DNA of 64,000 nucleotides, taken from Candidatus Hydrogenedentota bacterium. Its GTDB lineage: Bacteria > Hydrogenedentota > Hydrogenedentia > Hydrogenedentales > CAITNO01. A program made the translations under genes and the position numbers. The stretch spans positions 975-64,974 of the forward strand of contig JACFMU010000010.1 of assembly GCA_019455225.1 (NCBI GenBank), written 5' to 3'. How positions within the stretch are numbered: position 1 is the stretch's first letter; each line of letters starts with the position of its first letter. Below, piece after piece: positions 1 to 28,134 of this stretch. Under the pieces are notes generated by a model. The model did not search any database, was not told where the DNA came from, and saw nothing but the letters and a program-made list of their open reading frames with translations.

Positions 1-1
1 C

Positions 2-1318
2 GAAGTTATCCGGGCGGAGGTCGGGGTGATTGAGGCGCTGGGGGTGCGCGCCGTCACCAACTGCCGAATCGGCAAAGACATCCCGTTCCCGGAACTCCGG
101 AACCGCCACGACGCGGTGGTGATAGCGGTCGGGGCAAAGTGCTCCCGGAAGGTGACCGTGCCGGGCATGGAGGCGCCGGGGGTGATGGGCGGGGTTGAGT
201 TTTTACGGGATGTCGCCCTCGGGAACCCCCCCGAACTGGGCCGGCGTGTCGTCGTGATTGGCGGCGGGAACGTGGCCTACGACGTGGGCCGCACTGTGCT
301 GCGCCAAATATCCTTGGACGCCGCGCGCTCGGCCCTGCGCCGGCCCGGTGTTTCCGAGGTGCATTTGTGCTCGCTCGAATCGCTTGACGAGATGCCCGCG
401 GACGACATCGAAATCATCGAGGGTGACGAGGAGGGGATACTCCGCCACAACAGTGTGGGCCCCAAAGAGATACTTCTGGACAGTGGGGGGCGCGTCCAGG
501 GGGTCCGGTTCCGGCAGTGCCTGGGGGTCTTTGACGCGGACAGGCGTTTCAATCCGCAGTTTGACGACGCGCGGGTGACGGACATCGCCTGCGACAGCGT
601 GCTGCTGGCGGTGGGGCAGGCCTACGACGTGGGCTTTGTGGACGCCGCCCGGGACGGTCTTGAACTGCGGCCCAACGGGATGCTGGTCTGCGACCCGGAA
701 AGCGGCGAGACCGGCCAGCCCGACGTGTTTGTGGCGGGGGACCTCGCCTACGGCCCGAAACTGCTGATTCACGCGGTCGCCTCGGGCAAGGCCGTGGCGC
801 GGGGCGTTTACCGGCGCCTGATGGGTCGGGAGATTTCCCATGCGGACGTTTCCCTCCACTTCCCCATTCCCGATTATGCCCGCGAGAAGGATTACGAAAA
901 AATCCGCAGGGTAAAACCGGCAACCCTGCCCGCCGAAGAGCGGATCAAGGGCCACGACCTCCTTGTGGAGAAAGAACTGGGCGCCGAAGAGGCGCGCCTG
1001 GAGGCGTCGCGCTGCCTGAACTGCGGCGTCAACACCATATTCGACGGCGACCGGTGCGTTTTGTGCGGCGGCTGCGCGGAGGTCTGCCCCACGCTGTGCA
1101 TCCGCATCACTCCCGCGGAGGCGGCGGGCGCGACGGACCGCATGGCGGAGGCGGTCACCGCCCTGCTTGACGGATTTCCCGCCGGTCAGGCCTCCGCCTT
1201 CCTGAAGGACGAAACCCAGTGCATCCGGTGCGCCCTGTGCGCGGACCGGTGCCCCACCGGGGCGATAACCATGGAATCCTTCCACTTCGAGGAGAACCCC
1301 AAATGCCAGACCGTCTAG
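2..1318 (+). CDS. NAD(P)H-binding FAD oxidoreductase (GltD/glutamate-synthase-beta-like) with C-terminal 2x[4Fe-4S] ferredoxin domain; 5' end outside window; likely bc-complex accessory subunit
   Basis: Rossmann motif VVVIGGGNVAYDV and a second dinucleotide fold. The C-terminus has CLNCGVNTIFDGDRCVLCGGCAEVCP and CIRCALCADRCPTG, i.e. two CxxCxxCxxxCP clusters. The frame is open to base 2. It sits immediately upstream of and co-directional with the Rieske/cyt b genes. Confidence 0.75.
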   Translation, partial: EVIRAEVGVIEALGVRAVTNCRIGKDIPFPELRNRHDAVVIAVGAKCSRKVTVPGMEAPGVMGGVEFLRDVALGNPPELGRRVVVIGGGNVAYDVGRTVLRQISLDAARSALRRPGVSEVHLCSLESLDEMPADDIEIIEGDEEGILRHNSVGPKEILLDSGGRVQGVRFRQCLGVFDADRRFNPQFDDARVTDIACDSVLLAVGQAYDVGFVDAARDGLELRPNGMLVCDPESGETGQPDVFVAGDLAYGPKLLIHAVASGKAVARGVYRRLMGREISHADVSLHFPIPDYAREKDYEKIRRVKPATLPAEERIKGHDLLVEKELGAEEARLEASRCLNCGVNTIFDGDRCVLCGGCAEVCPTLCIRITPAEAAGATDRMAEAVTALLDGFPAGQASAFLKDETQCIRCALCADRCPTGAITMESFHFEENPKCQTV

Positions 1319-1770
1319 CCCCCGAACCTGTTCCCCGGCGCGACTTTCTGGGACTGGCCGGCACGGCCGCGGCCGGGCTGGCCGTGGCCGGGTCCCTTGC
1401 CGGACTGGCCCGCCTGCCCAAGCCCAGCGTGTTGCCCGAGGCGTCCCGCCGGTTCCGCGCGGGGAAACCCGAGGAATTCACGCCGGGGACGGTCAAGATT
1501 GTCCAGGAGCACAATGTCCGGCTCATCGGCACGGAGCAGGGGGTGGCGGCGCTGTCCCTTGTGTGCACCCATCTGGGCTGCATCGTCGCGGAGTCCCCGG
1601 AAGGCTTCAAGTGCCCCTGCCACGGGTCGAAGTTCACCCACGAGGGCAAAGTGACGGCGGGCCCCGCGCCGCGTCCGCTCCGCTGGCTGGCGGTTTCGCG
1701 GGCGGCCGACGGCAGCCTCGTGGTGGACAAGGATGTGGAAGTGGCCCCCAACCAGTTTTTCAAGGCTTGA
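1303..1770 (+). CDS. Rieske [2Fe-2S] iron-sulfur protein with Tat signal (bc-complex subunit)
   Basis: Twin-arginine motif RRDFLGLAG. Rieske boxes CTHLGC and CPCHGS. ATG at 1303 overlaps the upstream stop by 16 bp. Confidence 0.9.
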   Translation: MPDRLAPEPVPRRDFLGLAGTAAAGLAVAGSLAGLARLPKPSVLPEASRRFRAGKPEEFTPGTVKIVQEHNVRLIGTEQGVAALSLVCTHLGCIVAESPEGFKCPCHGSKFTHEGKVTAGPAPRPLRWLAVSRAADGSLVVDKDVEVAPNQFFKA

Positions 1771-1786
1771 AAGGAGCGTCTCATTC

Positions 1787-3334
1787 ATGGCATCCAACGG
1801 ACTGGGCACCTTTCTGGAAAACATGGCCGGACTTCCGCGCAATTTCGCCGCATCCCTGATACGGCACGGGGCGCCCACCTCGGACAGGGCGCGGTCCCAG
1901 ACGGTCTTCTCCAATTTTTTCCTCCACGTCCACTCGACCCGCGTCCATCCGGACTCCCTGCGTCCGGCGGCCACCTGGGGGCTGGGCGTGTCCCTTCTTT
2001 CACAGTTTGCCATACTCGCCGTGACGGGCGTGCTGCTCATGGTTTACTACAGCGCCTCCACGGAGCTGGCCTACAACTCCATCAAGGACCTGCATTACGT
2101 GGTGCCCACGGGCCGGTTCGTCCGGAACATCCACCGGTGGGCCGCGCATCTCATGGTGGCGTTTTTGTTCCTGCACATGGCGCGCGTGTTTTACACCTCG
2201 GCCTACAAGGGGCCGAGGGAGTTCAACTGGGTCGTGGGCATGGCGCTCATGGTGCTCACGCTGATGTTCTCCTTCACGGGGTATCTGCTTCCCTGGGACC
2301 AGCTCGCCTATTGGGCCGTCACCATCGGCGCGAACATCGCCGCCTCGCCCAACGAACTGGCCGAGGCACTCGGCCTGCCGCGGGTGTTTCACCTGGGCAG
2401 CCTGCAGAAAGAGCTTCTGCTGGGCGCCTCGAATGTGGGCCAGGAGGCCCTCACCCGCTTCTACCTGCTGCATGTTATGGTGCTGCCCATCCTGTTTCTC
2501 TGCGTGGCGGGGGTCCACCTGTGGCGCATCCGCAAGGACGGGGGTCTGGCGCGCCCGGAAGGCACCCCGACACCGGCGGGAAAAGGGGCGGGCACCATGT
2601 CCCCCACTCCCCGGAGCGCCGAGGAGGCGCCGGAAAAAAGCTACGGGCTGATGGCGGTTGTGCGGGACCGGTCCCCGCACACGGGGAAAAGCATGGACGA
2701 GACCGTCCCGGCCTGGCCCTATCTCATGCGCGCGGAGCTGCTGGTCTTCATGGCGAACATGCTGCTGTGCGTGGCGCTTGGGCTTCTTTTTGACGCGCCG
2801 CTCAAGGAGATGGCCAGTCCGGACATCCCCGAGAACCCGGCCAAGGCGCCCTGGTATTTCCTGGGACTGCAGGAGATGGTCTCCTATTCCGCCTTTGTGG
2901 GCGGCATCGTGATCCCCTCGATTGTGGTGTTCGGCCTGGCCCTCATTCCCTACCTTGACCGGGAGCGCGAGGCGTCGGGCGTGTGGTTCAGCGGGAGGCG
3001 CGGCGTCCGCGTCACCCTGCTGTCCGCGGTGGCGGGCACCGCGCTGGCCGTGGCCTCGGTGGCCTTTCCCGTGAACTATGGCTGGCTCCGCTCATGGTAT
3101 CCGGAGATCCCGCAACTGGTCATTATTTTGATCAATCCGGGCAGCCTGCTGACGGCGGCCTACGCCCTGTGGTCCGTGGCCGTGATCCAGCGGACCCGGT
3201 CCACCCGCATGGGCGCCGTGGCGCTTTTCACCTGCTTCCTGGCGGGCTTTATCGTGCTCACCTACGTCGGCACCAGTCTGCGCGGGCCCAACTGGGACTT
3301 CTACTGGAGCCAAAGCCAATGGCCGTCGCATTAA
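1787..3334 (+). CDS. Cytochrome b (fused cytochrome b6 + subunit IV-like, ~516 aa)
   Basis: Motifs HRWAAHLMV...FLHMARVFYTSAYKGPREFNWVVG...GYLLPWDQLAYWAVTIG are typical of PetB/cyt b6. The C-terminal half is a multi-TM extension. AAGGAG RBS before ATG 1787. Confidence 0.9.
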   Translation: MASNGLGTFLENMAGLPRNFAASLIRHGAPTSDRARSQTVFSNFFLHVHSTRVHPDSLRPAATWGLGVSLLSQFAILAVTGVLLMVYYSASTELAYNSIKDLHYVVPTGRFVRNIHRWAAHLMVAFLFLHMARVFYTSAYKGPREFNWVVGMALMVLTLMFSFTGYLLPWDQLAYWAVTIGANIAASPNELAEALGLPRVFHLGSLQKELLLGASNVGQEALTRFYLLHVMVLPILFLCVAGVHLWRIRKDGGLARPEGTPTPAGKGAGTMSPTPRSAEEAPEKSYGLMAVVRDRSPHTGKSMDETVPAWPYLMRAELLVFMANMLLCVALGLLFDAPLKEMASPDIPENPAKAPWYFLGLQEMVSYSAFVGGIVIPSIVVFGLALIPYLDREREASGVWFSGRRGVRVTLLSAVAGTALAVASVAFPVNYGWLRSWYPEIPQLVIILINPGSLLTAAYALWSVAVIQRTRSTRMGAVALFTCFLAGFIVLTYVGTSLRGPNWDFYWSQSQWPSH

Positions 3335-3347
3335 ACGGGGAGACACC

Positions 3348-4793
3348 GTGATGTCGGAAGAAAAAATCAAATCCCTTGACCACAGGCACAAATGGGCGCT
3401 GCTGGCGGTGAGCCTGGCCACGCTGGCGCTGCTGGCGGCGTCCGCCCTGAGCGAGAACGTGTTCGCCCCCTGGCGCATGGTGCGGGCCAAGTACGCCGCC
3501 ACGCTCGAGTCCAAGGCGGACGACGAGCAGGGGCGGCTGTTGGCGGCGGGGTTCAAGAACGAGATTGTCCAGAATGTCGTGCCCGAGCTGAACGTGGTGG
3601 ACCGCTGCGTCACCTGCCATCCGGGCCTGGACGATCCGCGCATGGCCGACGAGCCGCAGCCGTACCGCACGCATCCGGGCGACTATCTTGAGCATCACCC
3701 CCCCGAGCGCTACGGGTGCACCATCTGCCACCAGGGGCAGGGGCGCGCCACCGTGCTCGCCGACGCGAAGGCCTCGGATGTCCACTGGGACTATCCGCTG
3801 CTGCCCGGCGAGTTTGCGCAGTCAAGTTGCGCCATGTGCCACGCGCCCGACCAGCTCGGCGAGAGCGCCCCGCTGGCGGCGAGGGGATACGCGCTCTTTG
3901 TGGAGAACGGCTGCTTCGGCTGCCACAAAGTCGGCGGGGTCGGCGGGGCCATGGGTCCGGTGCTGGACCGCGTGGGGGTGAAGAAGAAGGCGGCGTACCC
4001 GTTCGCCCACATCGAGGGCGAGCGCACCATCGCCAACTGGCATGTCGAGCACCTGCTTGACCCCCAGAAGATAGTCCCGGACACGACGATGAAAAACTTC
4101 AACTTCTCCCGGGAGGACGCGGTGGCGATCACCAACTACATCCTTTCCCTGCGCGGCCTGGAGATACCCATGAGCTACATCCCCAGGGACCGCATCGCGT
4201 GGGAGTACAACAAGACCTTCCGCCCGACCCTCACCGGCAGGGACCTTTACGGGCGCTACTGCTCGGCCTGCCACCAGGACGGCATGGCCTCCCATTTTGA
4301 TCCGGTGCTGGGCCGCCACATACCCACGGTGAGAAACCCCGCCTTTCTGGCGTTCGCGACGGACGACTTTCTGCGGCAAACCATCGAGCGGGGCCGTCCG
4401 GGGCGGGACATGCCCGCATGGGGCGAAACGGCGGGCGGGCTGCGCGCCGATGAAATAGACAACCTGGTCGCCTATCTCCGGGAGGGCGCGCCCCTCTCGC
4501 CCGACTATGACGAGACCTACCGGGCGGCGGGCGACGCCGGCCGCGGCGGGCTCCTTTTCGAGCGGAACTGCTCGGGCTGCCACGGCGACCACGGGGAGGG
4601 CCTGAAGGCGCCCTCGCTCGCCAACACGGTGTTTCAGGAGACGGCGTCGGACGCGTATCTCCAGGCGACGATAAAGCACGGCCGCCACGGCACGGCCATG
4701 GCGGGCTTTGGCCAGGACTCTCCCTCATTTTCAGCGCTGACCGACAGGGAAGTCGGGGACCTTGTCATGTTCATCAGGGCCTTAAAACGATAA
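3348..4793 (+). CDS. Membrane-anchored hexaheme c-type cytochrome (bc-complex-associated)
   Basis: Six CxxCH motifs (CVTCH, CTICH, CAMCH, CFGCH, CSACH, CSGCH). N-terminal TM helix [19 protein letters not shown]. Confidence 0.85.
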
Positions 4794-4804
4794 AGGAACT
4801 TCCG

Positions 4805-7800
4805 ATGGCTGAGGAAAAGGAGACGCGCGGAGAAAGCACCCGGCGCGAGTTTCTGCGGCAGAGCGCCGCGCTCGGATTTGCGGCGTTTGTCTCGCAGGGC
4901 GCGCGCGCCTGGGGACTGGACACGGCCGCCAACCCGCTGGACAATTACCCGGACCGGGACTGGGAGAAGGTTTACCGCGACCTGTTCCAGCACGACAGCA
5001 CCTTCACCTTTTTGTGCGCGCCGAACGACACCCACAACTGTCTTCTGACGGCGTATATGAAAAACGGGATTCTGACCCGGATCAGCCCGACCTACCGGTA
5101 CGGCGAGGCGTCTGATTTGGACGGGAACAAAGCGTCGCACCGGTGGGATCCGCGCTGCTGCCAGAAGGGCCTCGCGCTGGTGCGCCGTTTTTACGGGGAC
5201 CGCCGCGTGAAGGGGCCCTGCGTCCGCAAGGGCTTCAAGGAGTGGGTGGACGCCGGATTTCCGCGGGACGCGGTGACGGGCGCGCCGCCGGAGCAGTACT
5301 TCCGGCGCGCGGAAGACTCCTGGCTCCAGTTGTCCTGGGACGAGGTGTCGGAGATTTCGGCGAAGGCGCTTCACAACATCGCCGAAGCTTATTCCGGGGA
5401 GGAGGGGGCAGGGCGCCTCAAGGCGCAGGGGCATTATTCGGACGAGATGATAGAGACCTGCCACGGGGCGGGCACGCAGGTGCTCAAGTTCCGCGGGGGG
5501 ATGCCCCTGCTCGGCACGCGGATATACGCGATGAACCGCTTCGCCAACGGCCTGGCGCTGCTGGACAACCACATCCGGAAGACCGGGCCGGAGGGGTCGT
5601 TCGGCGGCCGGGGATGGGACAGCTACTCGTGGCACACGGACCTGCCCCCGGGGCATCCCATGGTCACGGGCCAGCAGACGGTGGACTTTGACCTGTGCTC
5701 CGTGGAGCACTCCAAAATGGTCATCGTCTGGGGGATGAACTGGATTTGCACCAAGATGCCCGACAGCCACTGGCTGACGGAGGCCCGGATGAAGGGCGTG
5801 AAGGTGGTCGTCATCGCCTGCGAGTACAGCGCCACGGCGTCCAAGGGGGACGAGGTGCTTGTGGTGCGCCCGGGGACCACCCCGGCGCTGGCCCTTGGCC
5901 TGGCAGGCGTGATCATGCGGGAAAACCTGCAGGACACGGACTATGTGAAGAAGTACACGGACATGCCGCTGCTGGTCCGGCTGGACACGCGCGCCCTGCT
6001 CAGCGCGCAGGATGTCCTGGGCGGCGAACCGGCGCCCCTGACGAACTTCACCAAAGTGTTCGGGAAAGACGAGACGCCCCCGCCGCCCGTCAGGCAGAGC
6101 ACCCAGTGGATTCCCAAGGAGATGCGCGACGCGTGGGGGGACTTCATCGCGTGGGACACCCGGGAAAACAGGCCCGCCAGGGTCACCCGCGACGATGTGG
6201 GCGAAAACTTCACGCAACTGGGCGTCGAGCCCGCGCTCGAGGGCCGGTTCCAGGTCACCCTGCAGGACGGTAGCACCGTGGAGGCCGCGCCCATTTACGC
6301 GCTCATCAAGGAGCACCTGGAGCGCAACTACAATCCCCAGACGAGCTCGGGGATCACCTGGGCGCCGCCGGAGGCCATCGAGAAACTGGCGCGGGAGATA
6401 GCGAAGAACGCGCGCGCGACCATGTTCCCGGTCGGAATGGGCCCCAACCAGTTCTTCAACAACGACCTGAAGGACCGGTCCGTCTTTCTCCTGGCGGCGC
6501 TCACGGGCAACGTCGGGAACATTGGCGGGAACGTCGGCAGTTACGCCGGCAACTACCGCACCGCCCATTTCAACGGGTACCCCCAGTTCATTTACGAGAA
6601 CCCCTTCGACATCGAGACGGACCCCGCGAAGCCCGCGCGCGTCAAGTCCTACTGGAAGGGCGAGTCCGCCCACTTCTTCAATTACGGCGACCGCGAGCTC
6701 CGCGTGGGGAACAAGAATTTCACGGGGAAGGGCCACACCCCCACGCCGACCAAATCGGTCTGGCTCTCGAACTCGAACTCCATCATCGGCAACGCAAAAT
6801 GGCATTACGACCTCGTCTACAACACGCTTCCCAAGGTGGAGATGCTGGCCGTGTCGGACTGGTGGTGGACCGCGTCCTGCGAGTGGGCGGACATTGTCTT
6901 CGGCGTGGACTCCTGGGCGGAGATGAAAAGTCCGGACATGACCGCGTCGGTGACCAACCCCTTTCTGACTGTTTTCCCGGACACCCCCCTTCCGCGCCTC
7001 TTCGACACGCGCGGGGACATGGAGGTGCTGGCCCTGGTCAGCGACAAACTTGCGGCCATCACCGGCGACACGCGCTTCAGCGACCTGTGGCGGTACGCGC
7101 ACGGCGGGAAAACGCAGGTTTATCTCCAGCGCATATTGAACATGAGCAACTCCGCGGCGGGATACCAGATAGCCGACCTGCTGGGGAGCGCCAAGGAGGG
7201 CGTCCCCGCGCTGATGATGACCCGGACCACGCCCAGGTCGGTGGGGTTCGAGCAGGTCCATGAAAACAGGCCCTGGTACACCAAAACCGGCCGCCTCACC
7301 TTTTACATTGACGAGCGGGAGTTCATCGAAAACGGCGAGAACCTCCCCGTGCACCGGGAGCCCGTGGACTCGACGTTCCATGAGCCGAACGTGATTGTGT
7401 GCGCGCCCGACCCGCTGCTGAACCCGCTAACCCCGCGGGACTGCGGGTTTGCGGAGGACGACCTCGGGGTTGAAACACGGCAGGGCCGCCACGTGATCAA
7501 GCGCTGGGAGGATGTCTCCAAGACCAGCCACCCCCTGATGAAAGACGGCTTCAAGTTCATCATGCACACCCCGAAGTACCGGCACGGCGCGCACACCACG
7601 CCCATAGACACGGACATCATCGCGGTGTATTTCGGCCCCTTCGGGGACATTTTCCGGCATGACACGCGCAAGCCCTTCGTCACCGAGGGGTATGTGGACA
7701 TCAACCCCGGCGACGCCCGTGAAATCGGGGTGGATGACGGCGACTATGTCTGGATTGACGCGGACCCGTCCGACAGGCCCTTCCGAGGCCAGACCGCCGG

Positions 7801-8278
7801 GGACGGGCGCCTCAAGGTCAGCCGGCTTCTGGCGCGCGCCCGCTACTACAACGGCACCCCGAGGGGCGTCACCAGGATGTGGTTCAACATGTATGGGGCA
7901 ACGCCGGGCAGCGTGCGGGGCCAGCGCGAGCGCGGGGACGGGCTCGCAAAAAATCCGGATACCAATTACCAGGCCATGTTCCGCAGCGGATCGCACCAGA
8001 GCGGCACGCGGGCCTGGCTGAAGCCGACGCTGATGACGGACTCCCTGGTCCGCAAGGAGGGCATGGGGCACGCCATCAACAAGGGCTTCCTGGCCGACGT
8101 CCACTGCCCGACCGGCGCGCCCCGCGAGACCTTTGTGAAAATCACCAAGGCGGAGGACGGCGGCATCGGCGGGACGGGGAAGTGGAAGCCCCTGACCATG
8201 GGCATCCGCCCGACAAACGAGAGCGAGACGTTCAGGAAGTACCTGGACGGCGGATTCATAGAAGCGGCCGAACGCTGA
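4805..8278 (+). CDS. Periplasmic molybdopterin oxidoreductase alpha subunit, NarG/NxrA-type (type II DMSO-reductase family), Tat-exported, 1157 aa
   Basis: Tat motif [17 protein letters not shown]. The N-terminal Fe-S (FS0) region [20 protein letters not shown]...DPRCCQKG aligns with NarG HGVNCTGSCSWKIYVKNG...RGCPRG. Its length matches the NxrA/NarG size class. It is followed by the beta, gamma and delta genes. Confidence 0.85.
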
Positions 8279-8288
8279 GGATTGTGTC

Positions 8289-9416
8289 ATGGCCCAAGTA
8301 TTCAATTGGCAGATAGGCCGGGAAATGGACTACTGGTACACGGGGGTGCGTCCCGGCAGGCAGTTCGGCGCGGTCTTTGACATCAACAAGTGCATCGCGT
8401 GCCAGACCTGCACCGTGGCGTGCAAGACCACCTGGACCGGGGGCCGCGGCCAGGAGTACATGTTCTGGAACAACGTTGAAAGCAAGCCCTTCGGGTTCTA
8501 TCCCATCATGTGGGACGTGAAACTGCTCGAGATGCTGGGGCCCGGCGCGTGGCGGGAGGGCGTGTACGAGGGGCGGACCATCTTCGAGTCAGCGCCGGCG
8601 AAGGAGCGGGTGCTGGGCTGGAAGCCCACCGACTATGACTATGCCCACCCGAACCTGGGCGAGGACGAGGCGAGCAGCCCGGTGGACGGCGGGCTCATGA
8701 TGGAGGGGAAGCATGCGGCGTGGATGTTTTATCTGGCGAGAATCTGCAACCACTGCACCTATCCCGCCTGCCTTGCCGCATGCCCCCGCGGCGCCATTTA
8801 CAAGCGGAAAGAGGACGGCATTGTCCTGGTGAACCAGAAAAACTGCCGCGGCTACCAGGAGTGCGTGAAGGCGTGCCCCTACAAAAAAACCTTCTACAAC
8901 GCGGTCGAGGGGGTTTCCCAGAAATGCATCGCGTGCTATCCCGCCGTGGAGCGGGGGTTTCAGCCGCAGTGCTTCAAGGCGTGCATCGGCAAAATCCGAA
9001 TGCAGGGCTGGGCGCATCCGCCGGAGCGGGCCGAAGAGGACAATCCGATAGATTACCTGGTGCATGTCAGGAAACTGGCGCTGCCCCTGCTGCCCCAGCT
9101 CGGCCTGGAGCCGAATGTCTACTACATCCCGCCCGTTCACGCCTCGGACGCGTTTCTGGCCCAGATGTTCGGCCCCGCCGCGAAACAGGCCGTCCAGACC
9201 TATCTTGAAGCCCGGAACGACAAAGTTCTGGCCGGTCTTCTCACCCTGCTCGGGTCAACACACCGGACGGTTGATTATTTCAAAATCGAGGGCGACGAGG
9301 CCGTGGCCCTGGACGCGGAACGGTCCGAATTCTGCCGGGTGCCCATCAGTGAGCCCGTGGTCACCCGGAACGCCTACGATGAAATCGCGCAGGTGGGCCG
9401 CCACAACATTACCTGA
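8289..9416 (+). CDS. Molybdoenzyme beta subunit, NarH/NxrB-type, 4 Fe-S clusters
   Basis: Cys clusters [38 protein letters not shown] and CIACYPAV...CFKACIG. No signal peptide, consistent with a Tat hitch-hiker. Confidence 0.85.
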
Positions 9417-9450
9417 AGTGGAACAAGGAAGGACTGGACAGGTGAGCATC

Positions 9451-10353
9451 ATGAAGAAATCCGGGTTGGCCGCGCTGCTTTTGCTTCTCATGTCGTGCAC
9501 GAAAGTGCCGCCCGCCGCGCCGAACAGAATCATGGCGGGCTATTTGGAGGGTGATCTGGGCGCCCTGAGCATCGGGGACCCCCGGTGGGACGGCGCCGTG
9601 GAGACCCCCATACCGCTCAAACAGCAGCTCATCGCCCTGCCAAAGTCCGAGCAGGACGGGGTGGCGCAGATTGGTGTGCGGGCGTTTTACAACGGGGAAT
9701 GGGCCGCCTTTTTGCTGACCTGGAGCGACCCCACGCCGGACCATCTCACAAAGATGGGCAGTTTCAGCGACGCTGCCGCCATGGAGTTTCCCATGGAGCC
9801 GGGCGACCTGCCGGACAGCGCCATGGGCGGCGCGCCGGGAAGCGCGAAGCCGGTGCTGATTCACCAGTGGAAGGCCGTGTGGCAGGAGGCCGAGGCGGGG
9901 AACATCCAGGGCATAAAAACCTTCTATCCCAACACCTGGAGCGACGTGTATCTCTTCGAGATGCCGGGAACTCCGGAGGCGCGGGCGAAGATGGAGCGCA
10001 CCTTCACCACATCCGTGGCGGCGGAAAACCCCCTGGCACACCACGGCAAGGCGGTTCGCGACCTTGAGGCCGTCGGCTTTGGCTCGGTGAACCCGTCGGA
10101 GGAGCAACTGTCCAAGGGGAACGGCGAGTGGGCGGACGGGAAATGGCGCGTGCTTATTGTCAGGCCGGTGGCAAGGCTGCGGGGGGGGCTGGACACGACC
10201 CGGCTGCTCCACGCCGCCTTTGCGGTCTGGGACGGCGCCAAGGGCGAGGTGGGCGCGCGAAAGATGCAGAGCGCCTGGACGCCCCTGGAGTTCCTTAAAC
10301 CGGCGGCGCATGCCTCCAACCCCAAAGGCGGGAACAGCCGTGGACAACATTAA
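9451..10353 (+). CDS. Gamma subunit, EbdC/NxrC-like periplasmic heme-b protein with Sec/lipoprotein-type signal
   Basis: Signal LAALLLLLMSCT. The soluble domain has no TM helices, unlike NarI. Its position after the beta gene is as in type II enzymes (Ebd/Ser/Ddh/Nxr). Confidence 0.65.
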   Translation: MKKSGLAALLLLLMSCTKVPPAAPNRIMAGYLEGDLGALSIGDPRWDGAVETPIPLKQQLIALPKSEQDGVAQIGVRAFYNGEWAAFLLTWSDPTPDHLTKMGSFSDAAAMEFPMEPGDLPDSAMGGAPGSAKPVLIHQWKAVWQEAEAGNIQGIKTFYPNTWSDVYLFEMPGTPEARAKMERTFTTSVAAENPLAHHGKAVRDLEAVGFGSVNPSEEQLSKGNGEWADGKWRVLIVRPVARLRGGLDTTRLLHAAFAVWDGAKGEVGARKMQSAWTPLEFLKPAAHASNPKGGNSRGQH

Positions 10354-10933
10354 AGACAGCCCGTACGCGAAACTGGTTGGGGACGCGGCGGCCTACCGCC
10401 TGTTTTCCCTTGTCTTTCAGCCGCCGCATCCGGACCTGCCCGCGCAGATTGCCGCGCTGGGCCGAGAGGTCCGGGGGCCCGTGGCGGAATTGCCGAAAGC
10501 ATGCGGCAGCATGGATATGGAGGAGTATCACTTCATCCTCGGCCCGGCGGGCGGATGCTCCCCGTGCGAGTCGGAGTACCTCGGCGACAAGCTTGGGGGC
10601 AAGGGAAGCCTCATGGCGGATGTGGCGGGTTTTTATGACGCGTTTTCCTTTCCCCGCGACGCCGACACCCAGGAGAGGGTTGATCACATTGCGGTCGAGC
10701 TTTCCTTCATGAGTTTTCTCCTCCTCAAGACGGCCTATGCCGCGCACCGCGGCAACGCCCCCGGGGTGAACGTGTGCGCCGATGCGGGGGTCAAGTTCGC
10801 AAAGACCCATTTGCTGCCCTGGCTCAACCCCTTTCGGGAAAGGCTTGACACCGTGGCGCCCGGCTCGTTCTATGCGCGGGCGGCAACGGTGATGTGCGGC
10901 TGCCTGCCGGATGGATTCGGAACGGGTGACTGA
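10310..10933 (+). CDS. NarJ/TorD-family redox enzyme maturation chaperone (delta subunit)
   Basis: All-helical ~200-aa ORF overlapping the gamma gene stop. It is in the canonical position of the NarJ/EbdD/NxrD assembly chaperone. The start could also be GTG 10340. Confidence 0.7.
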   Translation: MPPTPKAGTAVDNIKDSPYAKLVGDAAAYRLFSLVFQPPHPDLPAQIAALGREVRGPVAELPKACGSMDMEEYHFILGPAGGCSPCESEYLGDKLGGKGSLMADVAGFYDAFSFPRDADTQERVDHIAVELSFMSFLLLKTAYAAHRGNAPGVNVCADAGVKFAKTHLLPWLNPFRERLDTVAPGSFYARAATVMCGCLPDGFGTGD

Positions 10934-12150
10934 TGCTGACTGACTGTCTGACTGGAATACGCCCCAAGCCCCGCACGGTCAAAGGCAAACCGTGGCCGGG
11001 GGGGATTTCCTTTGGCCGGGGGGAATGGTCGGGCGCATTTGGAGACATCGGCACGGACCTTCCCCTGCTGGTGGGCGTCATCCTGGTTTCCGGCATGGGT
11101 CCGGGGCGGGTGCTGCTGGTGTTCGGGCTGGCGCAAATCCTCTCCGGCCTGGTCTACCGCATGCCCATGCCCGTGCAGCCCCTAAAAGTTGTTGCGGTCC
11201 TGGTGATGGCCCAGGGCCTCCAGGGCAATGTGATCGCGGGCGGGGGACTCGCCATCGGGGTGGTCATGCTCGCGCTGACACTCACCGGCGCGCTGGACTT
11301 CCTGGCGCGGCTGGTTCCGGTGCCGGTGGTGCGCGGAATTCAGTGCGGACTGGGCGTCAAGCTGGCGCTGCTTGCCGCGGGGGACTATGTCATCGGCCAT
11401 GGCGCGCCGGGCATCCTTATGGCGTTTGCCGCGGTGCTGCTGCTGCCGGTGATGACGGGCCGCCCCAAGATTCCCGCATCGTTGGCCCTTCTGGCGTTGG
11501 GCGCGGCGGCGGCATGGCTCGGCGGGGCCGCCAACGGGGCCGGATGGCAACTGCCGCCGGCGGTTCAGCCGTGGTCCCTTCCGTCCACGGCGGACATCTG
11601 GGCCGGTTTTATCCTGCTGGCGCTTCCCCAGATTCCCCTGTCGCTGGGCAATTCAGTGCTTGCGACGCGCGAGCTGGCCATGGACTGGTTTCCCGAAGCC
11701 CGTGTGTCCGCCAAAAAAATCGGGTTCACGTATTCGCTGTTCAATATTGCCATCGCCTTTGTCGGCGGTGTGCCGGTGTGCCATGGGGCGGGGGGCATCG
11801 CGGGGCATTACGCCTTTGGCGCCCGCACCGGGGGTTCCGTGATTGTCTACGGTGGGTTCTTTGCGCTGCTGGGCGCCTGCGCGCTTCTCGGGCTGGGAAA
11901 TGTTCTGGCGCTGTTTCCGCTCCCCATATTGGGTGTGATTCTGGCCCGGGAAGGGCTCGCGCTCATGGGAAGGGTGCGGGGACTGGGGCATGACCCGGCG
12001 GCGCTGGCCACCGCGCTCCTCGTGTGCGTGCTGGCTGTGTTTCTTGCCAACGGGTTCCTGGCGGGCATGGTCGCCGGAACGCTCTTTTTTTGGGCATGCC
12101 GCAGGATGAGCATGCCCGGCGCCGCGTTGCCTGAAACGGAAACAGAGTGA
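10933..12150 (+). CDS. Polytopic membrane transporter, possibly MOT1/SulP-related molybdate transporter
   Basis: About 12 predicted TM segments. The N-terminal motif GAFGDIGTDLPLL resembles the GDLGT-IPI signature of MOT1-family molybdate transporters. It lies between the molybdoenzyme and Moco genes. Confidence 0.45.
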   Translation: MLTDCLTGIRPKPRTVKGKPWPGGISFGRGEWSGAFGDIGTDLPLLVGVILVSGMGPGRVLLVFGLAQILSGLVYRMPMPVQPLKVVAVLVMAQGLQGNVIAGGGLAIGVVMLALTLTGALDFLARLVPVPVVRGIQCGLGVKLALLAAGDYVIGHGAPGILMAFAAVLLLPVMTGRPKIPASLALLALGAAAAWLGGAANGAGWQLPPAVQPWSLPSTADIWAGFILLALPQIPLSLGNSVLATRELAMDWFPEARVSAKKIGFTYSLFNIAIAFVGGVPVCHGAGGIAGHYAFGARTGGSVIVYGGFFALLGACALLGLGNVLALFPLPILGVILAREGLALMGRVRGLGHDPAALATALLVCVLAVFLANGFLAGMVAGTLFFWACRRMSMPGAALPETETE

Positions 12151-12159
12151 GGGGCGCGC

Positions 12160-13269
12160 ATGGGAACAGGTGCTGAGATTCAGATGGAAGACGCCGGGAG
12201 CCGGCTGGAACGGCTCCCCGTGGCGCTTGTCGCAGGACACAGCGGCTCCGGCAAGACGACGCTCATCGAGCGGCTCGTGCCCCGGCTGATTGCCGGCGGG
12301 CTGAGGGTGGCCGTTGTCAAGCATGACGCGCACGGGCTGAACCTGGACCATCCGGGAAAGGACAGCGACCGGTTTTTCCGCGCGGGCGCGGCGGTGCTGG
12401 CCGGGGGACCGGGCGAGACCTTTCTCCGCATGCCGGGCACATGGGATTTGGAGGACGCCGCGCGCCGTCTGCTGCGGTCGAATGACCTGGTGCTTGTGGA
12501 GGGGCACAAAAACACGCGGGGACCCCTAAAAATCTGGCTGCGCGGCGGGGGAGAGGACGCGCCGCCGCCGGAGGCCGGGGACGCCGTGATGTGTCTTGAC
12601 CGGAACGAGCCGCGCGTTGCGATTGTCCACCGTTTTCTTCTGGAGTGGCTGGCGCGCCAATGGCTGCGCACCCCCGTGCGGGCGGGCGTTCTCATCGGCG
12701 GGAAGTCCTCGCGGATGGGCTCGCCGAAGCATCTGCTCCGCCACGGGGGGAAAAGCTGGGCGGCGCGTGTGGCGGCGGCCTTCGCCGGACACGCCGACTC
12801 CATCGTCCTGCTTGGGGCGGGGGACGCCCCCCCAGAGTTGGGTGAGTGCCCGCGGCTGCCGGATGTGCCCGGGTGCGCGGGCCCCATTGCGGGCATGCGC
12901 GCGGCCATGCGCTGGGACCCGGACGCGTCATGGATATTCGCGCCCTGCGACATGCCCCTTCTCACACCGGAAACCGTCGCCTGGATGCTTGCTCGGCGGA
13001 AGCCCGGAAGATGGGCGGTGATGCCCCGCCAAAGCCGTCAGGAACCGGCCGAGCCGCTGTTTGCCTGGTACGACTTCCGCGCGGCGGAATTGATGGAAAA
13101 GGTGTTAGCCCCGAGGGAATTGGCCGGATGGTCCCGCTCCCACACCGCGCTGATCCCGGGCGCGTTGGGGCGGGCGCTGAAAAACATGAACACGCCGCAT
13201 GACGCCGAAGGGCTCAGGGGCGCCCAGGACGGCCGCAACGCCCCGGCGGCGGCCGCGGGAGGTTTCTGA
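12160..13269 (+). CDS. mobA: MobB-MobA fusion (molybdopterin-guanine dinucleotide biosynthesis)
   Basis: N-terminal MobB P-loop VALVAGHSGSGKTTLIERL. C-terminal MobA-like GVLIGGKSSRMGSPKHLL...FAPCDMPLL. Confidence 0.8.
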   Translation: MGTGAEIQMEDAGSRLERLPVALVAGHSGSGKTTLIERLVPRLIAGGLRVAVVKHDAHGLNLDHPGKDSDRFFRAGAAVLAGGPGETFLRMPGTWDLEDAARRLLRSNDLVLVEGHKNTRGPLKIWLRGGGEDAPPPEAGDAVMCLDRNEPRVAIVHRFLLEWLARQWLRTPVRAGVLIGGKSSRMGSPKHLLRHGGKSWAARVAAAFAGHADSIVLLGAGDAPPELGECPRLPDVPGCAGPIAGMRAAMRWDPDASWIFAPCDMPLLTPETVAWMLARRKPGRWAVMPRQSRQEPAEPLFAWYDFRAAELMEKVLAPRELAGWSRSHTALIPGALGRALKNMNTPHDAEGLRGAQDGRNAPAAAAGGF

Positions 13270-13270
13270 C

Positions 13271-13732
13271 ATGCGCAAACTGTCGCATTTGAACAGCCAG
13301 GGCCGCGCCGTCATGGTGGATGTGGGGAACAAGGAGGTCCAGCGGCGAAACGCCGTAGCCGGGGGGAAGATCCGTCTGGCCGGGGAAACGGTGGCGCTTA
13401 TCCGGGACAGTCTTCTGAAGAAAGGGGACGTTTTGTGTGTCGCGGAAATCGCGGGGATACAGGCGGCCAAGCGGACCGCCGGCTTGATCCCACTCTGCCA
13501 TCCGCTACCCCTGACGGACATCAAAGTGACCGCGACCCTGGAGGATGACGGGGTTAGGGTGACGGGGAGTGTGTCCTGTCTGGGGAGGACGGGCGTGGAG
13601 ATGGAGGCGCTCACCGCCGTCAGCGCCGCGCTGCTGACGGTGTATGACATGTGCAAGGCCGTTGACAAGCACATGGTGATCGGGGACATCGCCCTTTTGA
13701 AGAAGACCAAGCAACCGGCTGGAGGGCGCTGA
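13271..13732 (+). CDS. moaC: Cyclic pyranopterin monophosphate synthase accessory protein MoaC
   Basis: LSHLNSQGRAVMVDVGNKEV...GLIPLCHPLPL...VEMEALTAVSAALLTVYDMCKA is typical of MoaC. Confidence 0.85.
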   Translation: MRKLSHLNSQGRAVMVDVGNKEVQRRNAVAGGKIRLAGETVALIRDSLLKKGDVLCVAEIAGIQAAKRTAGLIPLCHPLPLTDIKVTATLEDDGVRVTGSVSCLGRTGVEMEALTAVSAALLTVYDMCKAVDKHMVIGDIALLKKTKQPAGGR

Positions 13733-13735
13733 GTC

Positions 13736-14704
13736 ATGGCGGTTCACGCGCGGGAAAGTGTTTTTGCGGCAGCGGCCAGGGGGACGGTGGCGTCATTAAA
13801 CGTCTCGGAGTCCAAGGGCACCTGCAAAACGCCGGTTTCCGAGGTGCAGGTGACGGAGCTGGGGTTTGCCGGGGACGCCCATGCGGGCGGCTGGGGCAGG
13901 CAGGTCAGCCTGCTCTCCCTGGAAAGCGTGGGGCGCTTCGGCGGCATCGTCGGAAAAGAGTACAAGCCGGGCGATTTTGCCGAGAACATCACAACCATGG
14001 GGCTTGCGCTGGAAAAGACGGCCCTGCTTGACCGGTTCAGCGCCGCCGATGTGGAGCTTGAAGTCACCCAGTTGGGCAAAAAATGCCACGGCAAGGGCTG
14101 CGCCATCTTCCAGGGGGCGGGCAAATGCCTGATGCCCACGGAGGGGATTTTCACCCGCGTGCGAAGGGGCGGAACCCTGCGCGGGGGGGATGAGATACTC
14201 CACCACCCCAAACGGCTTCGTGTCCGTGTGATCACCCTGAGCGACCGCGCAAGCCGCGGGGTGTATGAGGACCGGAGCGGGCCCAGGATTGTGGAGCTGC
14301 TGGGAAGCCTGTTTGGCGGAAAACCGTGGGAAATGGACACGGACACGCGGCTGCTGCCGGACGACCCGCGGCTGCTGGACGAGGAACTGCGCGGGGCCTG
14401 CCTGGACGGCCTGGACGCGGTGTTCACCACCGGCGGCACGGGAATCGGGCCCAGGGACTGGACCCCCGATGTGGTCACCGCCATGGCCGACAAGACGATA
14501 CCGGGGATCATGGAGGCCGTCCGGATGAAATACGGCGCGGAAAACCCCGCCGCACTGCTCAGCCGGTCCGTGGCCGCAGTCGCGGGCGCCACCCTGATTT
14601 ACACGCTTCCCGGCTCCGTCCGGGCCGTGGAGGAATACCTGGGCGAAATCGCCAAGACCTTTAATCATCTTCTTCTGACCGTCCACGGCATTGACAGCCA
14701 CTGA
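13736..14704 (+). CDS. mogA: MOSC domain fused to MogA/MoaB-type molybdopterin adenylyltransferase
   Basis: N-terminal MOSC beta-barrel (GDFAENITTMG, KCHGKGC). The C-terminal region VITLSDRAS...GGTGIGPRDWTPDV matches MogA. Confidence 0.75.
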   Translation: MAVHARESVFAAAARGTVASLNVSESKGTCKTPVSEVQVTELGFAGDAHAGGWGRQVSLLSLESVGRFGGIVGKEYKPGDFAENITTMGLALEKTALLDRFSAADVELEVTQLGKKCHGKGCAIFQGAGKCLMPTEGIFTRVRRGGTLRGGDEILHHPKRLRVRVITLSDRASRGVYEDRSGPRIVELLGSLFGGKPWEMDTDTRLLPDDPRLLDEELRGACLDGLDAVFTTGGTGIGPRDWTPDVVTAMADKTIPGIMEAVRMKYGAENPAALLSRSVAAVAGATLIYTLPGSVRAVEEYLGEIAKTFNHLLLTVHGIDSH

Positions 14705-14781
14705 CGGCCCTTCGGCAACCATGGGCAACAGACCATCACCGGGCTCCGGCGCGGGAAGACACTTTCAGGAAAGCACGACGC

Positions 14782-15804
14782 ATGGCGGCGGCGGCCAAAA
14801 CAGTCAAATCGGTTGAGTCCGGCATGTTGCGCGACGGATGCGGCCGCGTTCATGACTATCTGCGCATTGCCGTGACGGACCGGTGCAACCTGCGGTGCCT
14901 GTACTGCATGCCCTCCGGTGTCAAATGCGCGGCGCCGGCCGAAACGCTGCTCACGGATGATGAGATTGTCCGGATCAGCCGCCTGTTCGCGCGGCTCGGG
15001 GTGGTCAAAATCCGCCTGACCGGCGGGGAGCCGCTGCTGCGGCCGGGGATTTCCGGCCTTGCGGCCAGACTCGCCGCCGTTTCCGGCATACACACGGTCG
15101 CCGTGACGACCAACGGGCTGCGCCTCGCCGAAAAGGTCCGCGCGCTCCGGGACGCCGGCGTGCGCGGAATCAATGTGAGCCTGGACAGTCTGCGCCCGGA
15201 GCGTTTCCGGCGGATTGCCGGCCATGACGGCCTGGCGCGCGTGCTGGACGGAATCGCGGCGGCGCTTGACTGCGGGATTCAGCCCCTCAAAATCAACATG
15301 GTGGTGATGGGCGGGCTGAACGACGATGAATTGTTGGACTTTGTGGAGCTCACCCGCAACAGCCCGGCATGCGTCAGGTTTATCGAGTTCATGCCGTTTC
15401 CGGGAAATCCCTGGTGCGACGCGCAGGTGGTCCCCCATGCGGCCATGCGGAAAGCCATCGAGTCCCGGCACCCCCTTGAGACGGTTTCCGGCACAGTCCG
15501 GGGGCGGGTCGCGAAAGAGTTCAGGGTGCCCGGTTTCAGGGGGTCCCTCGGCTTCATCACGCCGATGACGGACCATTTCTGCGGGGGCTGCTCCAGGCTC
15601 CGGCTCACTGCGGACGGTTCCCTGAAGACCTGCCTTTTTCATGCGCCCGAATTCAGCCTGCGCGACGCGATGCGCGGCGGGGCGGATGACGGGGACCTGG
15701 CGGACATGGTCCAGAGCGCGCTGAAGGGCAAGCCGCGCGCCCATGCGGAGGGCGCCGTCCTGGTCGCGGGGGGAGGCAGGAGCATGTTTCAGATTGGCGG
15801 TTGA
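14782..15804 (+). CDS. moaA: GTP 3',8-cyclase MoaA (radical SAM)
   Basis: CNLRCLYCM radical-SAM motif. C-terminal CGGCSRLRLTADGSLKTCLF cluster. Confidence 0.9.
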   Translation: MAAAAKTVKSVESGMLRDGCGRVHDYLRIAVTDRCNLRCLYCMPSGVKCAAPAETLLTDDEIVRISRLFARLGVVKIRLTGGEPLLRPGISGLAARLAAVSGIHTVAVTTNGLRLAEKVRALRDAGVRGINVSLDSLRPERFRRIAGHDGLARVLDGIAAALDCGIQPLKINMVVMGGLNDDELLDFVELTRNSPACVRFIEFMPFPGNPWCDAQVVPHAAMRKAIESRHPLETVSGTVRGRVAKEFRVPGFRGSLGFITPMTDHFCGGCSRLRLTADGSLKTCLFHAPEFSLRDAMRGGADDGDLADMVQSALKGKPRAHAEGAVLVAGGGRSMFQIGG

Positions 15805-15841
15805 CGGGCATTGGGTTGATTCGCGCGCAAGGAGCCGGACA

Positions 15842-17041
15842 ATGAAAAAAATGGTTCATCCTGACGAGGCGCTGGAAATGGTTCTAGCCGCCGCAAAACC
15901 AATGGCGCCCGCCCGCGTTCCCATTGAAAACGCAGCGGGGCTGGTTCTGGCCGAGGAGGTCGTCGCGGACCGCCCCTACCCCCCTTTCGACAGGGTGATG
16001 ATGGACGGTTATGCCGTCCGCCTTGCGGATGCGGGCAAAAGTGTTCAGGTGGGCGGGGAGGTTCGGGCGGGCGGCGCCGGGACGGTTGAAGTGGCATCCG
16101 GCAGGGCTGTGCGTGTCATGACCGGCGCGCCGTGCCCGCCCGGAACGGAGACGGTGGTCCCCGTGGAGGAGGTGGAGGAATCCGGCGCGGAGGCCATGCT
16201 TCCCGGCGGCCTGGAGCCGGGAAAGCATATTGCGCCCATGGGAAGCGAGTGCGGACAGGGGGAGGTTGTCGCCCGGAAAGGCTGGGAGATCACCCCGCTG
16301 GTGGTCGCAAATCTCGCCGCATACGGGTACACGGGCATTGGCGTCATTTCCCCCCCCGTGTGCGCTTTGGTCACCACGGGGGATGAGATTGTCCAGTGGG
16401 GGAGCGCCCCGGCGGCCCATCAGATTCGCAACGCCAACGCCCCCATGCTGGCGGTCCAACTGCGGGCGGCGGGCGTGCGGAAAATACTGCGCGGACACGC
16501 CGGCGACAGCATGGGGCAGTTGCGGGCGATGATGGCCCACACCGGACAGGCCGATGTCGTGGTGATTTCGGGCGGCGTCTCCATGGGGGCCTACGACATG
16601 GTGCCGGACGCGCTTCGCGGGCATGGCGTGGAGGTCCATTTTCACAAGGTGTCCCAAAAACCGGGAAAGCCGCTCCTGTTCGGCTCGAAAGACGGACGCC
16701 TGTACTTCGGGCTTCCGGGCAACCCCCTGGCGTGCCATGTGTGCCTCCACCGTTACGTGGTTCCGGCGGTCAGGAAAATGATGGGCAGGCCGGAAAGGGC
16801 GTGCGCGGTGCGGGGAAGGCTTGCGGCCCCACTTGCGAAGAACGGGGCGCGGACGCTGTTCCAGCTTTGCAGCACGGAATGGGACGGACGGCAATGGACA
16901 GTCACGCCGCTGGCGGGACGGGGTTCGGCGGACATCCATGCCGCCGCCCGCGCCAATTCATGTGTGCGCCTGGAGCCCGGCGCCCCGCAGCTCGCCTGCG
17001 GGGCGGAGGTGGAGGCGCAAATGACCGCGCCCGCGTTGTAG
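15842..17041 (+). CDS. moeA: Molybdopterin molybdotransferase MoeA
   Basis: The PYPPFDRVMMDGYAVR motif and a ~400-aa MoeA-like architecture including GNPLAC. Confidence 0.8.
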   Translation: MKKMVHPDEALEMVLAAAKPMAPARVPIENAAGLVLAEEVVADRPYPPFDRVMMDGYAVRLADAGKSVQVGGEVRAGGAGTVEVASGRAVRVMTGAPCPPGTETVVPVEEVEESGAEAMLPGGLEPGKHIAPMGSECGQGEVVARKGWEITPLVVANLAAYGYTGIGVISPPVCALVTTGDEIVQWGSAPAAHQIRNANAPMLAVQLRAAGVRKILRGHAGDSMGQLRAMMAHTGQADVVVISGGVSMGAYDMVPDALRGHGVEVHFHKVSQKPGKPLLFGSKDGRLYFGLPGNPLACHVCLHRYVVPAVRKMMGRPERACAVRGRLAAPLAKNGARTLFQLCSTEWDGRQWTVTPLAGRGSADIHAAARANSCVRLEPGAPQLACGAEVEAQMTAPAL

Positions 17042-28037: not shown

Positions 28038-28134
28038 AGAAGAGTGCCGTTCCTAGGAGAGTGCTGTCCCTCTGGCAATGTCGCCGCCGGGGAGGGTATC
28101 ATGGTTGCCGGCAAAACAAGGGGATCCGGAATCC

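Follow-up and report, generated by a model that had tools for sequence, protein, structure and literature searches.

We analysed a 64,000-nucleotide stretch of a Candidatus Hydrogenedentota genome (contig JACFMU010000010.1, positions 975 to 64,974 of the forward strand), hereafter the window, in which a flavoprotein-Rieske/cytochrome b module is encoded directly ahead of a periplasmic molybdoenzyme that resembles nitrite oxidoreductases (NXRs) and nitrate reductases (Nars). The best explanation for this eight-gene string, and one that we regard as fairly probable, is a periplasmic nitrate reductase that is coupled to the Rieske/b complex and has a low-potential branch linked to NAD(P). From gene content, motifs, export signals, linkage and conservation, which can be observed directly, we infer a physical complex with nitrate as its substrate; the gene linkage further suggests that both modules may join in one supercomplex.

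Gene content and layout of the string

Open reading frame (ORF) listing combined with Pfam and NCBIfam scans placed all eight genes on the + strand within window positions 1-10933. The first (26-1318; the cut gene occupies 1..1318) encodes a cytoplasmic, GltD-like, NAD(P)-binding flavin adenine dinucleotide (FAD) flavoprotein that ends in a 2x[4Fe-4S] ferredoxin domain (Pyr_redox_2 1.3e-16; two Fer4, 9.2e-12; NCBIfam PRK12771 2e-69). Downstream lie genes for a Rieske [2Fe-2S] protein that is exported by twin-arginine translocation (Tat) and held by a single transmembrane anchor (1303-1770; Pfam Rieske 4.5e-11; twin-arginine motif PRRDFL), a 515-aa fusion of cytochrome b6 with a subunit IV-like part (1787-3334; Pfam Cytochrome_B 2e-36; best PDB matches cytochrome b6, 2.8e-35), and a membrane-anchored hexahaem cytochrome c of 480 aa (3351-4793; six CXXCH motifs, one N-terminal transmembrane helix; Pfam Cytochrome_CBB3 and Cytochrom_C). 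The molybdoenzyme genes come next: a Tat-exported, periplasmic NXR/NAR-like molybdopterin alpha subunit of 1157 aa (4805-8278; TRREFL at residue 12), a 375-aa NxrB/NarH-like iron-sulfur beta subunit with four-cluster Cys groups and no signal peptide (8289-9416; Pfam Fer4_11 3.6e-29; NCBIfam DMSO_red_II_bet 1.9e-75), and an NxrC/EbdC-like haem-b gamma subunit that starts MKKSG and carries a Sec/lipoprotein-type signal with a lipobox-like LMSC (9451-10353; Pfam EB_dh 3.4e-20). The last gene encodes a NarJ/TorD-type assembly chaperone (10340-10933; Pfam Nitrate_red_del 4e-15; NCBIfam DMSO_red_II_cha 1.8e-13; a 197-aa gene call in locus L082).

From flavoprotein to chaperone, the gaps at successive junctions are -16, +16, +16, +11, +10, +34 and -14 nt. 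These scans confirm the eight tightly packed, co-directional genes and the functions that a first-pass annotation of this DNA had assigned to them. That annotation had also ended the string at 10933, which does not hold: six further same-strand genes for molybdate uptake and molybdenum cofactor (Moco) synthesis continue to 17041 (10933..17041, +). They encode a MOT1-type molybdate transporter (MFS_MOT1 4.5e-49), a MobB-MobA fusion (MobB/NTP_transf_3), MoaC (1.1e-52), a MOSC-MoaB/Mog protein (MoCF_biosynth/MOSC), MoaA (Radical_SAM+Mob_synth_C) and MoeA (MoeA_N). A scan for consensus promoters and terminators inside the string gave no signal above shuffled expectation, and it neither supports nor refutes a single transcript.

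The possibility that the linkage stems from a chimeric assembly was ruled out, as the junctions recur in independent assemblies (L081, L082, L087-L089) and in about 60 other genomes. One of these, the same-species assembly L087, shares 99.65% DNA identity with window positions 1-7770.

The arrangement is conserved across phyla

We compared the window proteins by tblastn with the 80 best loci, 61 of which include at least 5.3 kb upstream of alpha and 19 of which have truncated upstream DNA. All four Rieske/b-module genes lie in the window order and strand in 58 of the 61, and the same count applies to the eight genes in the same order and to the flavoprotein as first gene. Cytochrome c is the gene immediately ahead of alpha in 58 of the 61 full loci and in 15 of the 19 truncated ones; the cytochrome c and alpha matches lie a median of 30 nt apart. 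The arrangement is conserved far beyond chance.

At least 588 species genomes of a GTDB-based collection contain an alpha relative with 61-66% identity. Carriers include members of Acidobacteriota (Blastocatellia, Bryobacterales, Vicinamibacterales), Planctomycetota, Binatia and Myxococcota/Desulfobacterota, and further of Zixibacteria, Eisenbacteria and Acidimicrobiia. The full cluster is found in the cultured isolate Thermopirellula anaerolimosa, where gene ends overlap, and in a metagenome-assembled genome (MAG) of the Thermoguttaceae (L008), which has all eight genes. Within the main group, alpha subunits are 80-87% identical across phyla, which implies that the whole cluster has spread horizontally between them. 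Judged by its 64% alpha identity to the main group and its six rather than seven cytochrome c haems, the window copy is a divergent representative of a family that is widespread. The linkage had at first been taken for an undescribed one-off; that view gives way to its presence in 58 of 61 loci, in many phyla and in a cultured isolate, to the gene order published for Thermogutta terrifontis, and to the Rieske/cytochrome b-Nar clusters of haloarchaea.

Conserved linkage also bears on a reading in which the genes are co-transcribed but specify separate complexes, connected by diffusion or co-regulation, so that the Rieske/b complex would be a general complex III and the flavoprotein would have nothing to do with nitrate. 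Consistent with this, the adjacent Rieske/b complex of T. terrifontis is its only annotated complex III and has also been assigned to the aerobic chain, two alpha relatives (L085 and L086) have no adjacent Rieske/b module, and the Kuenenia NXR is soluble or tubule-forming and unbound to a Rieske/b complex. We nevertheless consider it unlikely, given that the gene order and the 10-30 nt spacing between cytochrome c and alpha are kept across phyla despite horizontal exchange. A second, differently ordered linkage in the Kuenenia-type clade (clade K, defined below) argues in the same direction: at L084 (15965-19450), clade-K genes in the order nxrA-nxrC-nxrB-narJ are followed by genes for a Rieske protein, for cytochrome b6 and subunit IV as separate proteins, and for a large cytochrome c with multiple haems, with an Rrf2 regulator and a cupredoxin-like protein encoded upstream. 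Independent acquisition of this set by a clade-K locus suggests repeated selection for a partnership between NXR-type enzymes and Rieske/b complexes.

The molybdoenzyme belongs to a sister clade of proven NXRs

Clustering of alpha with non-nitrogen type II enzymes, a possibility raised in the first-pass annotation, was not found. Alpha aligns end to end (residues 12-1153) with Kuenenia NxrA (7B04_B; E 6.5e-263, 878 bits), whereas PcrA, EbdA and E. coli NarG reach 173, 151 and 138 bits, and the gap between NxrA and the PcrA and EbdA scores places it apart from ethylbenzene dehydrogenase and (per)chlorate-type enzymes.

For a finer placement we used a 49-sequence alignment and a neighbour-joining tree that carries no support values and includes no sequence named Nitrospira. 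Proven NXRs were represented by the Kuenenia sequence rebuilt from its PDB alignment, by its relatives and by a 'Nitrospinota' MAG; extra taxa came from 50%-clustered representatives whose named members are Gaiellaceae, SAR202 and similar. The window alpha has the same sequence as P0001, an NCBI protein from a 'Candidatus Hydrogenedens sp.' MAG, and groups with P0002-P0004 (70-81% identity) inside a clade that we call B (63-66%). Clade K, at 40-42% identity to the window alpha, is separate from clade B and holds Kuenenia, other anammox bacteria, a Nitrospinota MAG, NC10 and many others, and outgroup sequences are 30-33% identical. Because the tree has neither support values nor Nitrospira, the split between the clades rests mainly on this identity gap and on diagnostic residues. 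On these grounds, the window alpha appears to lie outside the clade of proven NXRs, in a sister clade. The earlier label of an NxrA/NarG-like alpha subunit is therefore sound as far as the full-length NxrA match goes, but has to be qualified by the roughly 40% identity, the sister-clade position and the residue differences described below.

One Planctomycetota contig (L038; JACPTZ010000120.1, 74,128 bp) apparently carries two alpha genes of different clades. The first, of clade B and 63% identical to the window alpha, stands behind a divergent Rieske/b module; the second (P0504) shares 66% identity with Kuenenia NxrA. If so, a single genome would hold NXR-like paralogues from both clades.

Active-site-vicinity residues were taken from a 2025 review and from Chicano et al. 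The window alpha shares C71, N74, D75, C79, H277, D279 and K924 with Kuenenia NxrA. The FS0 motif C-x2-N-D-x3-C (3Cys/1Asp) is present, with C71/N74/D75/C79/D279 aligning to C67/N70/D71/C75/D275 of the Kuenenia (Ks) enzyme. At four other positions the clades part: T278, T316, M545 and Q549 are invariant in clade B (n=20), where clade K (n=21) has G, N, E and H (Ks Gly274, Asn312, Glu527 and His531). E. coli NarG has Thr259 at the position of window Thr316 and Ala542 at that of Met545.

These four positions, invariant in clade B and unlike proven NXRs, invite the reading that the clade-B enzyme reduces another high-potential oxyanion (chlorate/perchlorate or selenate) or some other substrate, with the Rieske/b complex still acting as donor. 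According to Castelle et al., three of the five conserved substrate residues are absent from a Zixibacteria enzyme, for which they proposed a new type or a different substrate; we take this enzyme to be of clade B, since a Zixibacteria alpha falls there in our tree. Type II dimethyl sulfoxide (DMSO) reductase-family substrates are diverse, and PcrA and EbdA are the next-best PDB matches. Even so, the substrate-coordinating Asn74 and the Mo-ligand Asp279 are kept and Thr316 has its counterpart in NarG, while the neighbouring genes indicate nitrogen oxides (see below), T. terrifontis respires nitrate, and the very broad environmental range of the family suits nitrate better than rare oxyanions. 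We think it improbable that the enzyme has such a different substrate.

The export layout, with a Tat signal on alpha, none on beta and a separate signal on an EB_dh-type gamma, follows the periplasmic NXR pattern, and beta is presumably co-exported with alpha. Gamma matches 7B04_C (1.3e-12) and 2IVF_C (1.2e-07) and has MG and RK motifs at the positions of the Met/Lys haem ligands. Since the molybdoenzyme faces the periplasm, a nitrate/nitrite antiporter would not be needed.

The flavoprotein-Rieske/b module resembles that of anammox bacteria

The flavoprotein fragment in the window matches positions 198-563 of the 566-position PRK12771 profile, which indicates that the window start cuts the gene and leaves about 200 codons outside. 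In L087 the complete protein has 631 aa, with an N-terminal, Cys-rich GltD-type Fer4_20 domain, GSGPAG and GGGNVA motifs, and two C-terminal CxxCxxCxxxC motifs, giving four iron-sulfur sites in total.

Among PDB entries, the Rieske protein matches 9rk4 (3.8e-20) and 9rk3 (2.4e-15) best. Judging by the titles and SKY/SGF box II pairs of these entries, we take them to be the two Rieske proteins from Kuenenia whose structures Hauser et al. solved and whose measured potentials are +303 and +335 mV. Box II of the window protein reads CPCHGSKF, and this Ser/Phe pair is near-universal among related loci.

In cytochrome b, the b6 part retains all four His ligands of haem b, hydropathy gives five hydrophobic segments in the C-terminal half (residues 317-494), and the APWYF motif of the quinol-oxidising Qo site is invariant among related loci. 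An alignment to b6 shows that the haem-cn Cys (b6 Cys35 position) is replaced by Gly (TWGLG) and that the N-terminal region has no Cys; the b6 reference was checked against the PDB match over residues 36-210, a range that begins just after this position. The same alignment reveals an 18-residue insertion with a conserved FLH.H ahead of the first helix.

A second Rieske/b subtype is joined to clade-B alpha genes at six loci (L001-L004, L038 and L052). Its cytochrome b is 40-49% identical to that of the window, has Tyr at the haem-cn Cys position, and gives a tblastn match that spans the b6 part only. The presence of this subtype beside clade-B alpha genes suggests that the partnership is kept while the module diverges or is swapped.

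The cytochrome c presumably carries electrons between the Rieske protein and the molybdoenzyme. Its description as a hexahaem protein is right for the window, with six CXXCH motifs, but not for the family, in which 60 of 67 relatives have seven (for example in the 552-aa protein of Thermopirellula). The window lineage seems to have lost one haem domain.

Together, the Rieske matches to 9rk4 and 9rk3, the b6-type cytochrome b, the five-helix subunit IV part, the multihaem cytochrome c and the GltD-like flavoprotein bear out the initial view of an anammox-style Rieske/b module.

Genomic context points to nitrate reduction

Clustering the flanking ORFs of all loci yields about 27 loci with Rrf2 regulators, 14 with Crp/Fnr regulators and about 19 with hemerythrin/RIC-like proteins. 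In Thermopirellula anaerolimosa (L083), two Rrf2 genes and a qNor-type nitric oxide (NO) reductase gene lie ahead of the cluster and Moco biosynthesis genes after it, and in L087 a divergently transcribed Rrf2 gene, whose product has a Cys cluster motif, lies upstream of the flavoprotein gene. Such neighbours are characteristic of anaerobic regulons that respond to nitrogen oxides, and they favour respiration of nitrate. The rest of the window is of housekeeping or heterotroph type (peptidase, fucosidase, aminotransferases, ABC exporter, Clp ATPase), and no CO2-fixation or oxidase genes were found in its 64 kb; this content, together with the heterotrophic hosts, also favours nitrate reduction.

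Physiological precedents agree. T. terrifontis grows by nitrate respiration, and ahead of its sole annotated Nar (THTE_1509-1506) stand genes for a Rieske protein, cytochrome b and cytochrome c, arranged as in the window; its authors suggest that complex III feeds Nar, and a published tree groups its NarG with the periplasmic NXR-type clade. A nitrate-respiring organism with this gene order favours nitrate reduction, and so does the haloarchaeal precedent, where nitrate-dependent growth of carriers of Rieske/cytochrome b-Nar clusters is antimycin-sensitive. The Kuenenia NXR reduces nitrate as well as oxidising nitrite, and the full-length homology of the window alpha to this bidirectional enzyme, with the FS0 motif and the Mo-ligand Asp kept, supports nitrate reduction too. 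Judged from the genes, the enzyme would most likely reduce nitrate rather than oxidise nitrite.

The opposite direction was the other option put forward in the first-pass annotation, which saw a nitrite oxidiser driving electrons uphill to NAD(P)+. As a nitrite oxidoreductase, the enzyme would pass nitrite electrons through alpha, beta, gamma and the multihaem cytochrome c to an oxidase, or send them in reverse through the Rieske/b complex and so generate quinol or NAD(P)H. Alpha is indeed NXR-like in its length, Tat export, 3Cys/1Asp FS0 motif, His277 and Lys924, the Kuenenia enzyme works in both directions, and trees by Suarez et al. join related sequences to those of nitrite oxidisers, for which nitrite oxidation was proposed. 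Several observations make this reading very unlikely: alpha is only about 40% identical to the clade of proven NXRs and falls in a separate one, the hosts belong overwhelmingly to heterotrophic phyla and the window has no autotrophy or oxidase genes, the neighbours comprise anaerobic or NO-responsive regulators and qNor, and a cultured carrier of the same gene order respires nitrate. Moreover, an electron at +430 mV could reach NAD(P)+ (-320 mV) via Qo and the b haems only against both the redox gradient and the membrane potential, which we consider implausible. Delivery of quinol electrons to periplasmic nitrate reduction, the alternative named alongside it, is favoured by the neighbours, the thermodynamics and the heterotrophic hosts.

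A number of points weigh against a nitrate reductase fed by the Rieske/b complex. The function of clade B is read here from genes, and its invariant T278, T316, M545 and Q549 differ from proven NXRs; for the Zixibacteria enzyme, Castelle et al. suggest another substrate. In the view of Suarez et al., the homologues in Planctomycetota are putative nitrite oxidoreductases. Orthology with T. terrifontis is likely on the basis of gene order and the published tree; this organism was not among the best 120 matches of a search with a Thermoguttaceae alpha, and Thermopirellula anaerolimosa was. A nitrite reductase is not encoded within the window. Finally, with a cytochrome b that has no haem-cn Cys, the anammox electron path cannot simply be transferred.

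Proposed electron path

In the scheme that we favour, a nitrate reductase fed by the Rieske/b complex, the b6f-like complex would oxidise menaquinol at Qo and conserve energy through proton release at this site. The high-potential electron would travel from the Rieske protein through the multihaem cytochrome c, the haem b of gamma and the iron-sulfur chain of beta to the Mo site of alpha, where nitrate would be turned into nitrite in the periplasm. The low-potential electron would cross the two b haems to the cytoplasmic side, where the GltD-like flavoprotein would be attached. Two roles are conceivable for the flavoprotein: it may take up the low-potential electron and reduce NAD(P)+, a nitrate-driven quinol bifurcation as proposed for anammox bacteria, or NAD(P)H electrons may be fed into the b-haem/Qn side.

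The first of these roles would make the cluster a quinol-based bifurcating machine, in which nitrate pulls one menaquinol electron downhill and the other runs through the b haems and the iron-sulfur chain to NAD(P)H. A calculation for the anammox scheme indicates that electron transfer from quinol to nitrate (about +500 mV) can pay for transfer from quinol to NAD(P)+ (about -250 mV). We regard this version as possible but rather doubtful. If true, it would amount to reverse electron flow independent of the proton-motive force, widespread in Acidobacteriota, Planctomycetota, Binatia and other phyla, and it would offer, in cultured carriers, the first tractable model for the debated NAD(P)-reductase Rieske/b complexes of anammox bacteria.

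Other features of the locus and the window

In L087, a 696-aa secreted protein with no Pfam match (1777-3867) is encoded between the Rrf2 and flavoprotein genes. It contains long Asp-rich, thrombospondin-type-3-like repeats (DxDxDGxxD) and a C-terminal transmembrane anchor.

Window positions 28078-34662 form a low-GC island (0.56-0.61 against about 0.66 elsewhere) with the type I restriction-modification genes HsdM, HsdS (padloc Specificity_I 7.8e-117) and HsdR; an ORF between S and R (31004-32053) has a weak match to IS200-like Y1 transposases. The island was probably acquired horizontally. On the - strand, 45157-46603 encodes a 365-aa AAA/SMC-type ATPase (padloc mad3 9.4e-29, and matches to the N-termini of the GajA and PtuA models) followed by a 120-aa ORF without a match, in a GC-poor stretch at 42-46 kb. 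The two may constitute a small defence gene pair.

Significance

Metagenome surveys routinely label genes of this clade 'nxrA' or 'narG', and nitrite oxidation has been proposed on their basis in phyla such as Planctomycetota and Zixibacteria. Their conserved quinol-oxidising Rieske/b wiring and their anaerobic or NO-responsive regulators argue that most clade members are nitrate reductases. If so, nitrogen-cycle inferences would change for many genomes, considering the 588 or more species genomes with an alpha relative.

The function of the NAD(P)-oxidoreductase Rieske/b complexes of anammox bacteria is debated, and these bacteria are not genetically manipulable. The same architecture on a defined high-potential reductase in cultured heterotrophs (Thermopirellula and probably Thermogutta) would make the bifurcation hypothesis approachable by experiment. 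The haloarchaeal solution, in which a Rieske/b complex supplies electrons to a periplasmic Nar, would also extend to many bacterial phyla.

Comparison with known systems

In the literature searched (subscription papers were outside reach), we found no description of a GltD-Rieske/b-NXR-like cluster as a unit; a matching gene order received only a passing mention, for T. terrifontis.

The closest counterparts of the module are the Kuenenia Rieske/b complexes Kuste4569-4574 and Kustd1480-1485. Like the window module, they combine a Rieske protein with a cytochrome b of the b6 type and a subunit IV part of five helices; a hexa- or octahaem cytochrome c, anchored in the membrane, takes the place of cytochrome f/c1, a cytoplasmic GltD/Nfn-like FAD subunit has four iron-sulfur sites, and a periplasmic catalytic partner is encoded at the cluster end. 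The Ser/Phe pair in box II is found in Kustd1480 as well. The likeness of the Rieske protein is one of sequence, and that of cytochrome b, flavoprotein and cytochrome c one of described architecture. The differences are substantial: the partner is a hydroxylamine oxidoreductase (HAO)-like octahaem protein in Kuenenia and an alpha/beta/gamma molybdoenzyme with its chaperone here; b6 and subunit IV are split there and form one polypeptide here; models of the Kuenenia complexes make use of the haem-cn Cys that is Gly in the window cytochrome b; and the hosts are anammox bacteria in one case and non-anammox heterotrophs in the other.

The molybdoenzyme finds its nearest parallel in Kuenenia NXR-ABC (7B04) and in NxrA of Nitrospira, Nitrospina and anammox bacteria, with which it has Tat export, FS0, the substrate Asn, the Mo-ligand Asp, His277 and Lys924 in common, in addition to an EB_dh-type gamma with Met/Lys motifs as in Kuenenia. 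It departs from Kuenenia NXR in its alpha identity of about 40% and separate clade, in T/T/M/Q for G/N/E/H, in a shorter beta (375 aa), and in that no NXR-T or tubule genes were seen here.

For the linkage itself there are two precedents. The haloarchaeal periplasmic Nar (pNar) cluster, narB-narC-...-narG-narH, likewise has Rieske and cytochrome b genes directly upstream of Tat-exported NarG/NarH, together with a soluble cytochrome b partner, and a path from quinol through Rieske/b to nitrate has been proposed for it. It differs in its actinobacterial/Thermus bc-type cytochrome b, its low-potential Gly/Phe Rieske protein and its lack of a cytochrome c and a flavoprotein, whereas the window cluster is b6f-like, with a Ser/Phe Rieske protein, a multihaem cytochrome c and a GltD-like subunit. 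The two clusters are analogous, not orthologous. T. terrifontis R1 (THTE_1512-1506) has the identical order of Rieske, cytochrome b, cytochrome c, NarG, NarH, 'NarI' and TorD genes; there, unlike here, the enzyme is annotated as a cytoplasmic NarGHI, and a flavoprotein gene is not discussed by its authors. The kinds of component are thus already known, as a Rieske/b-fed periplasmic Nar from haloarchaea, as NAD(P)-reductase Rieske/b complexes from anammox bacteria, and as periplasmic NXR-type enzymes.

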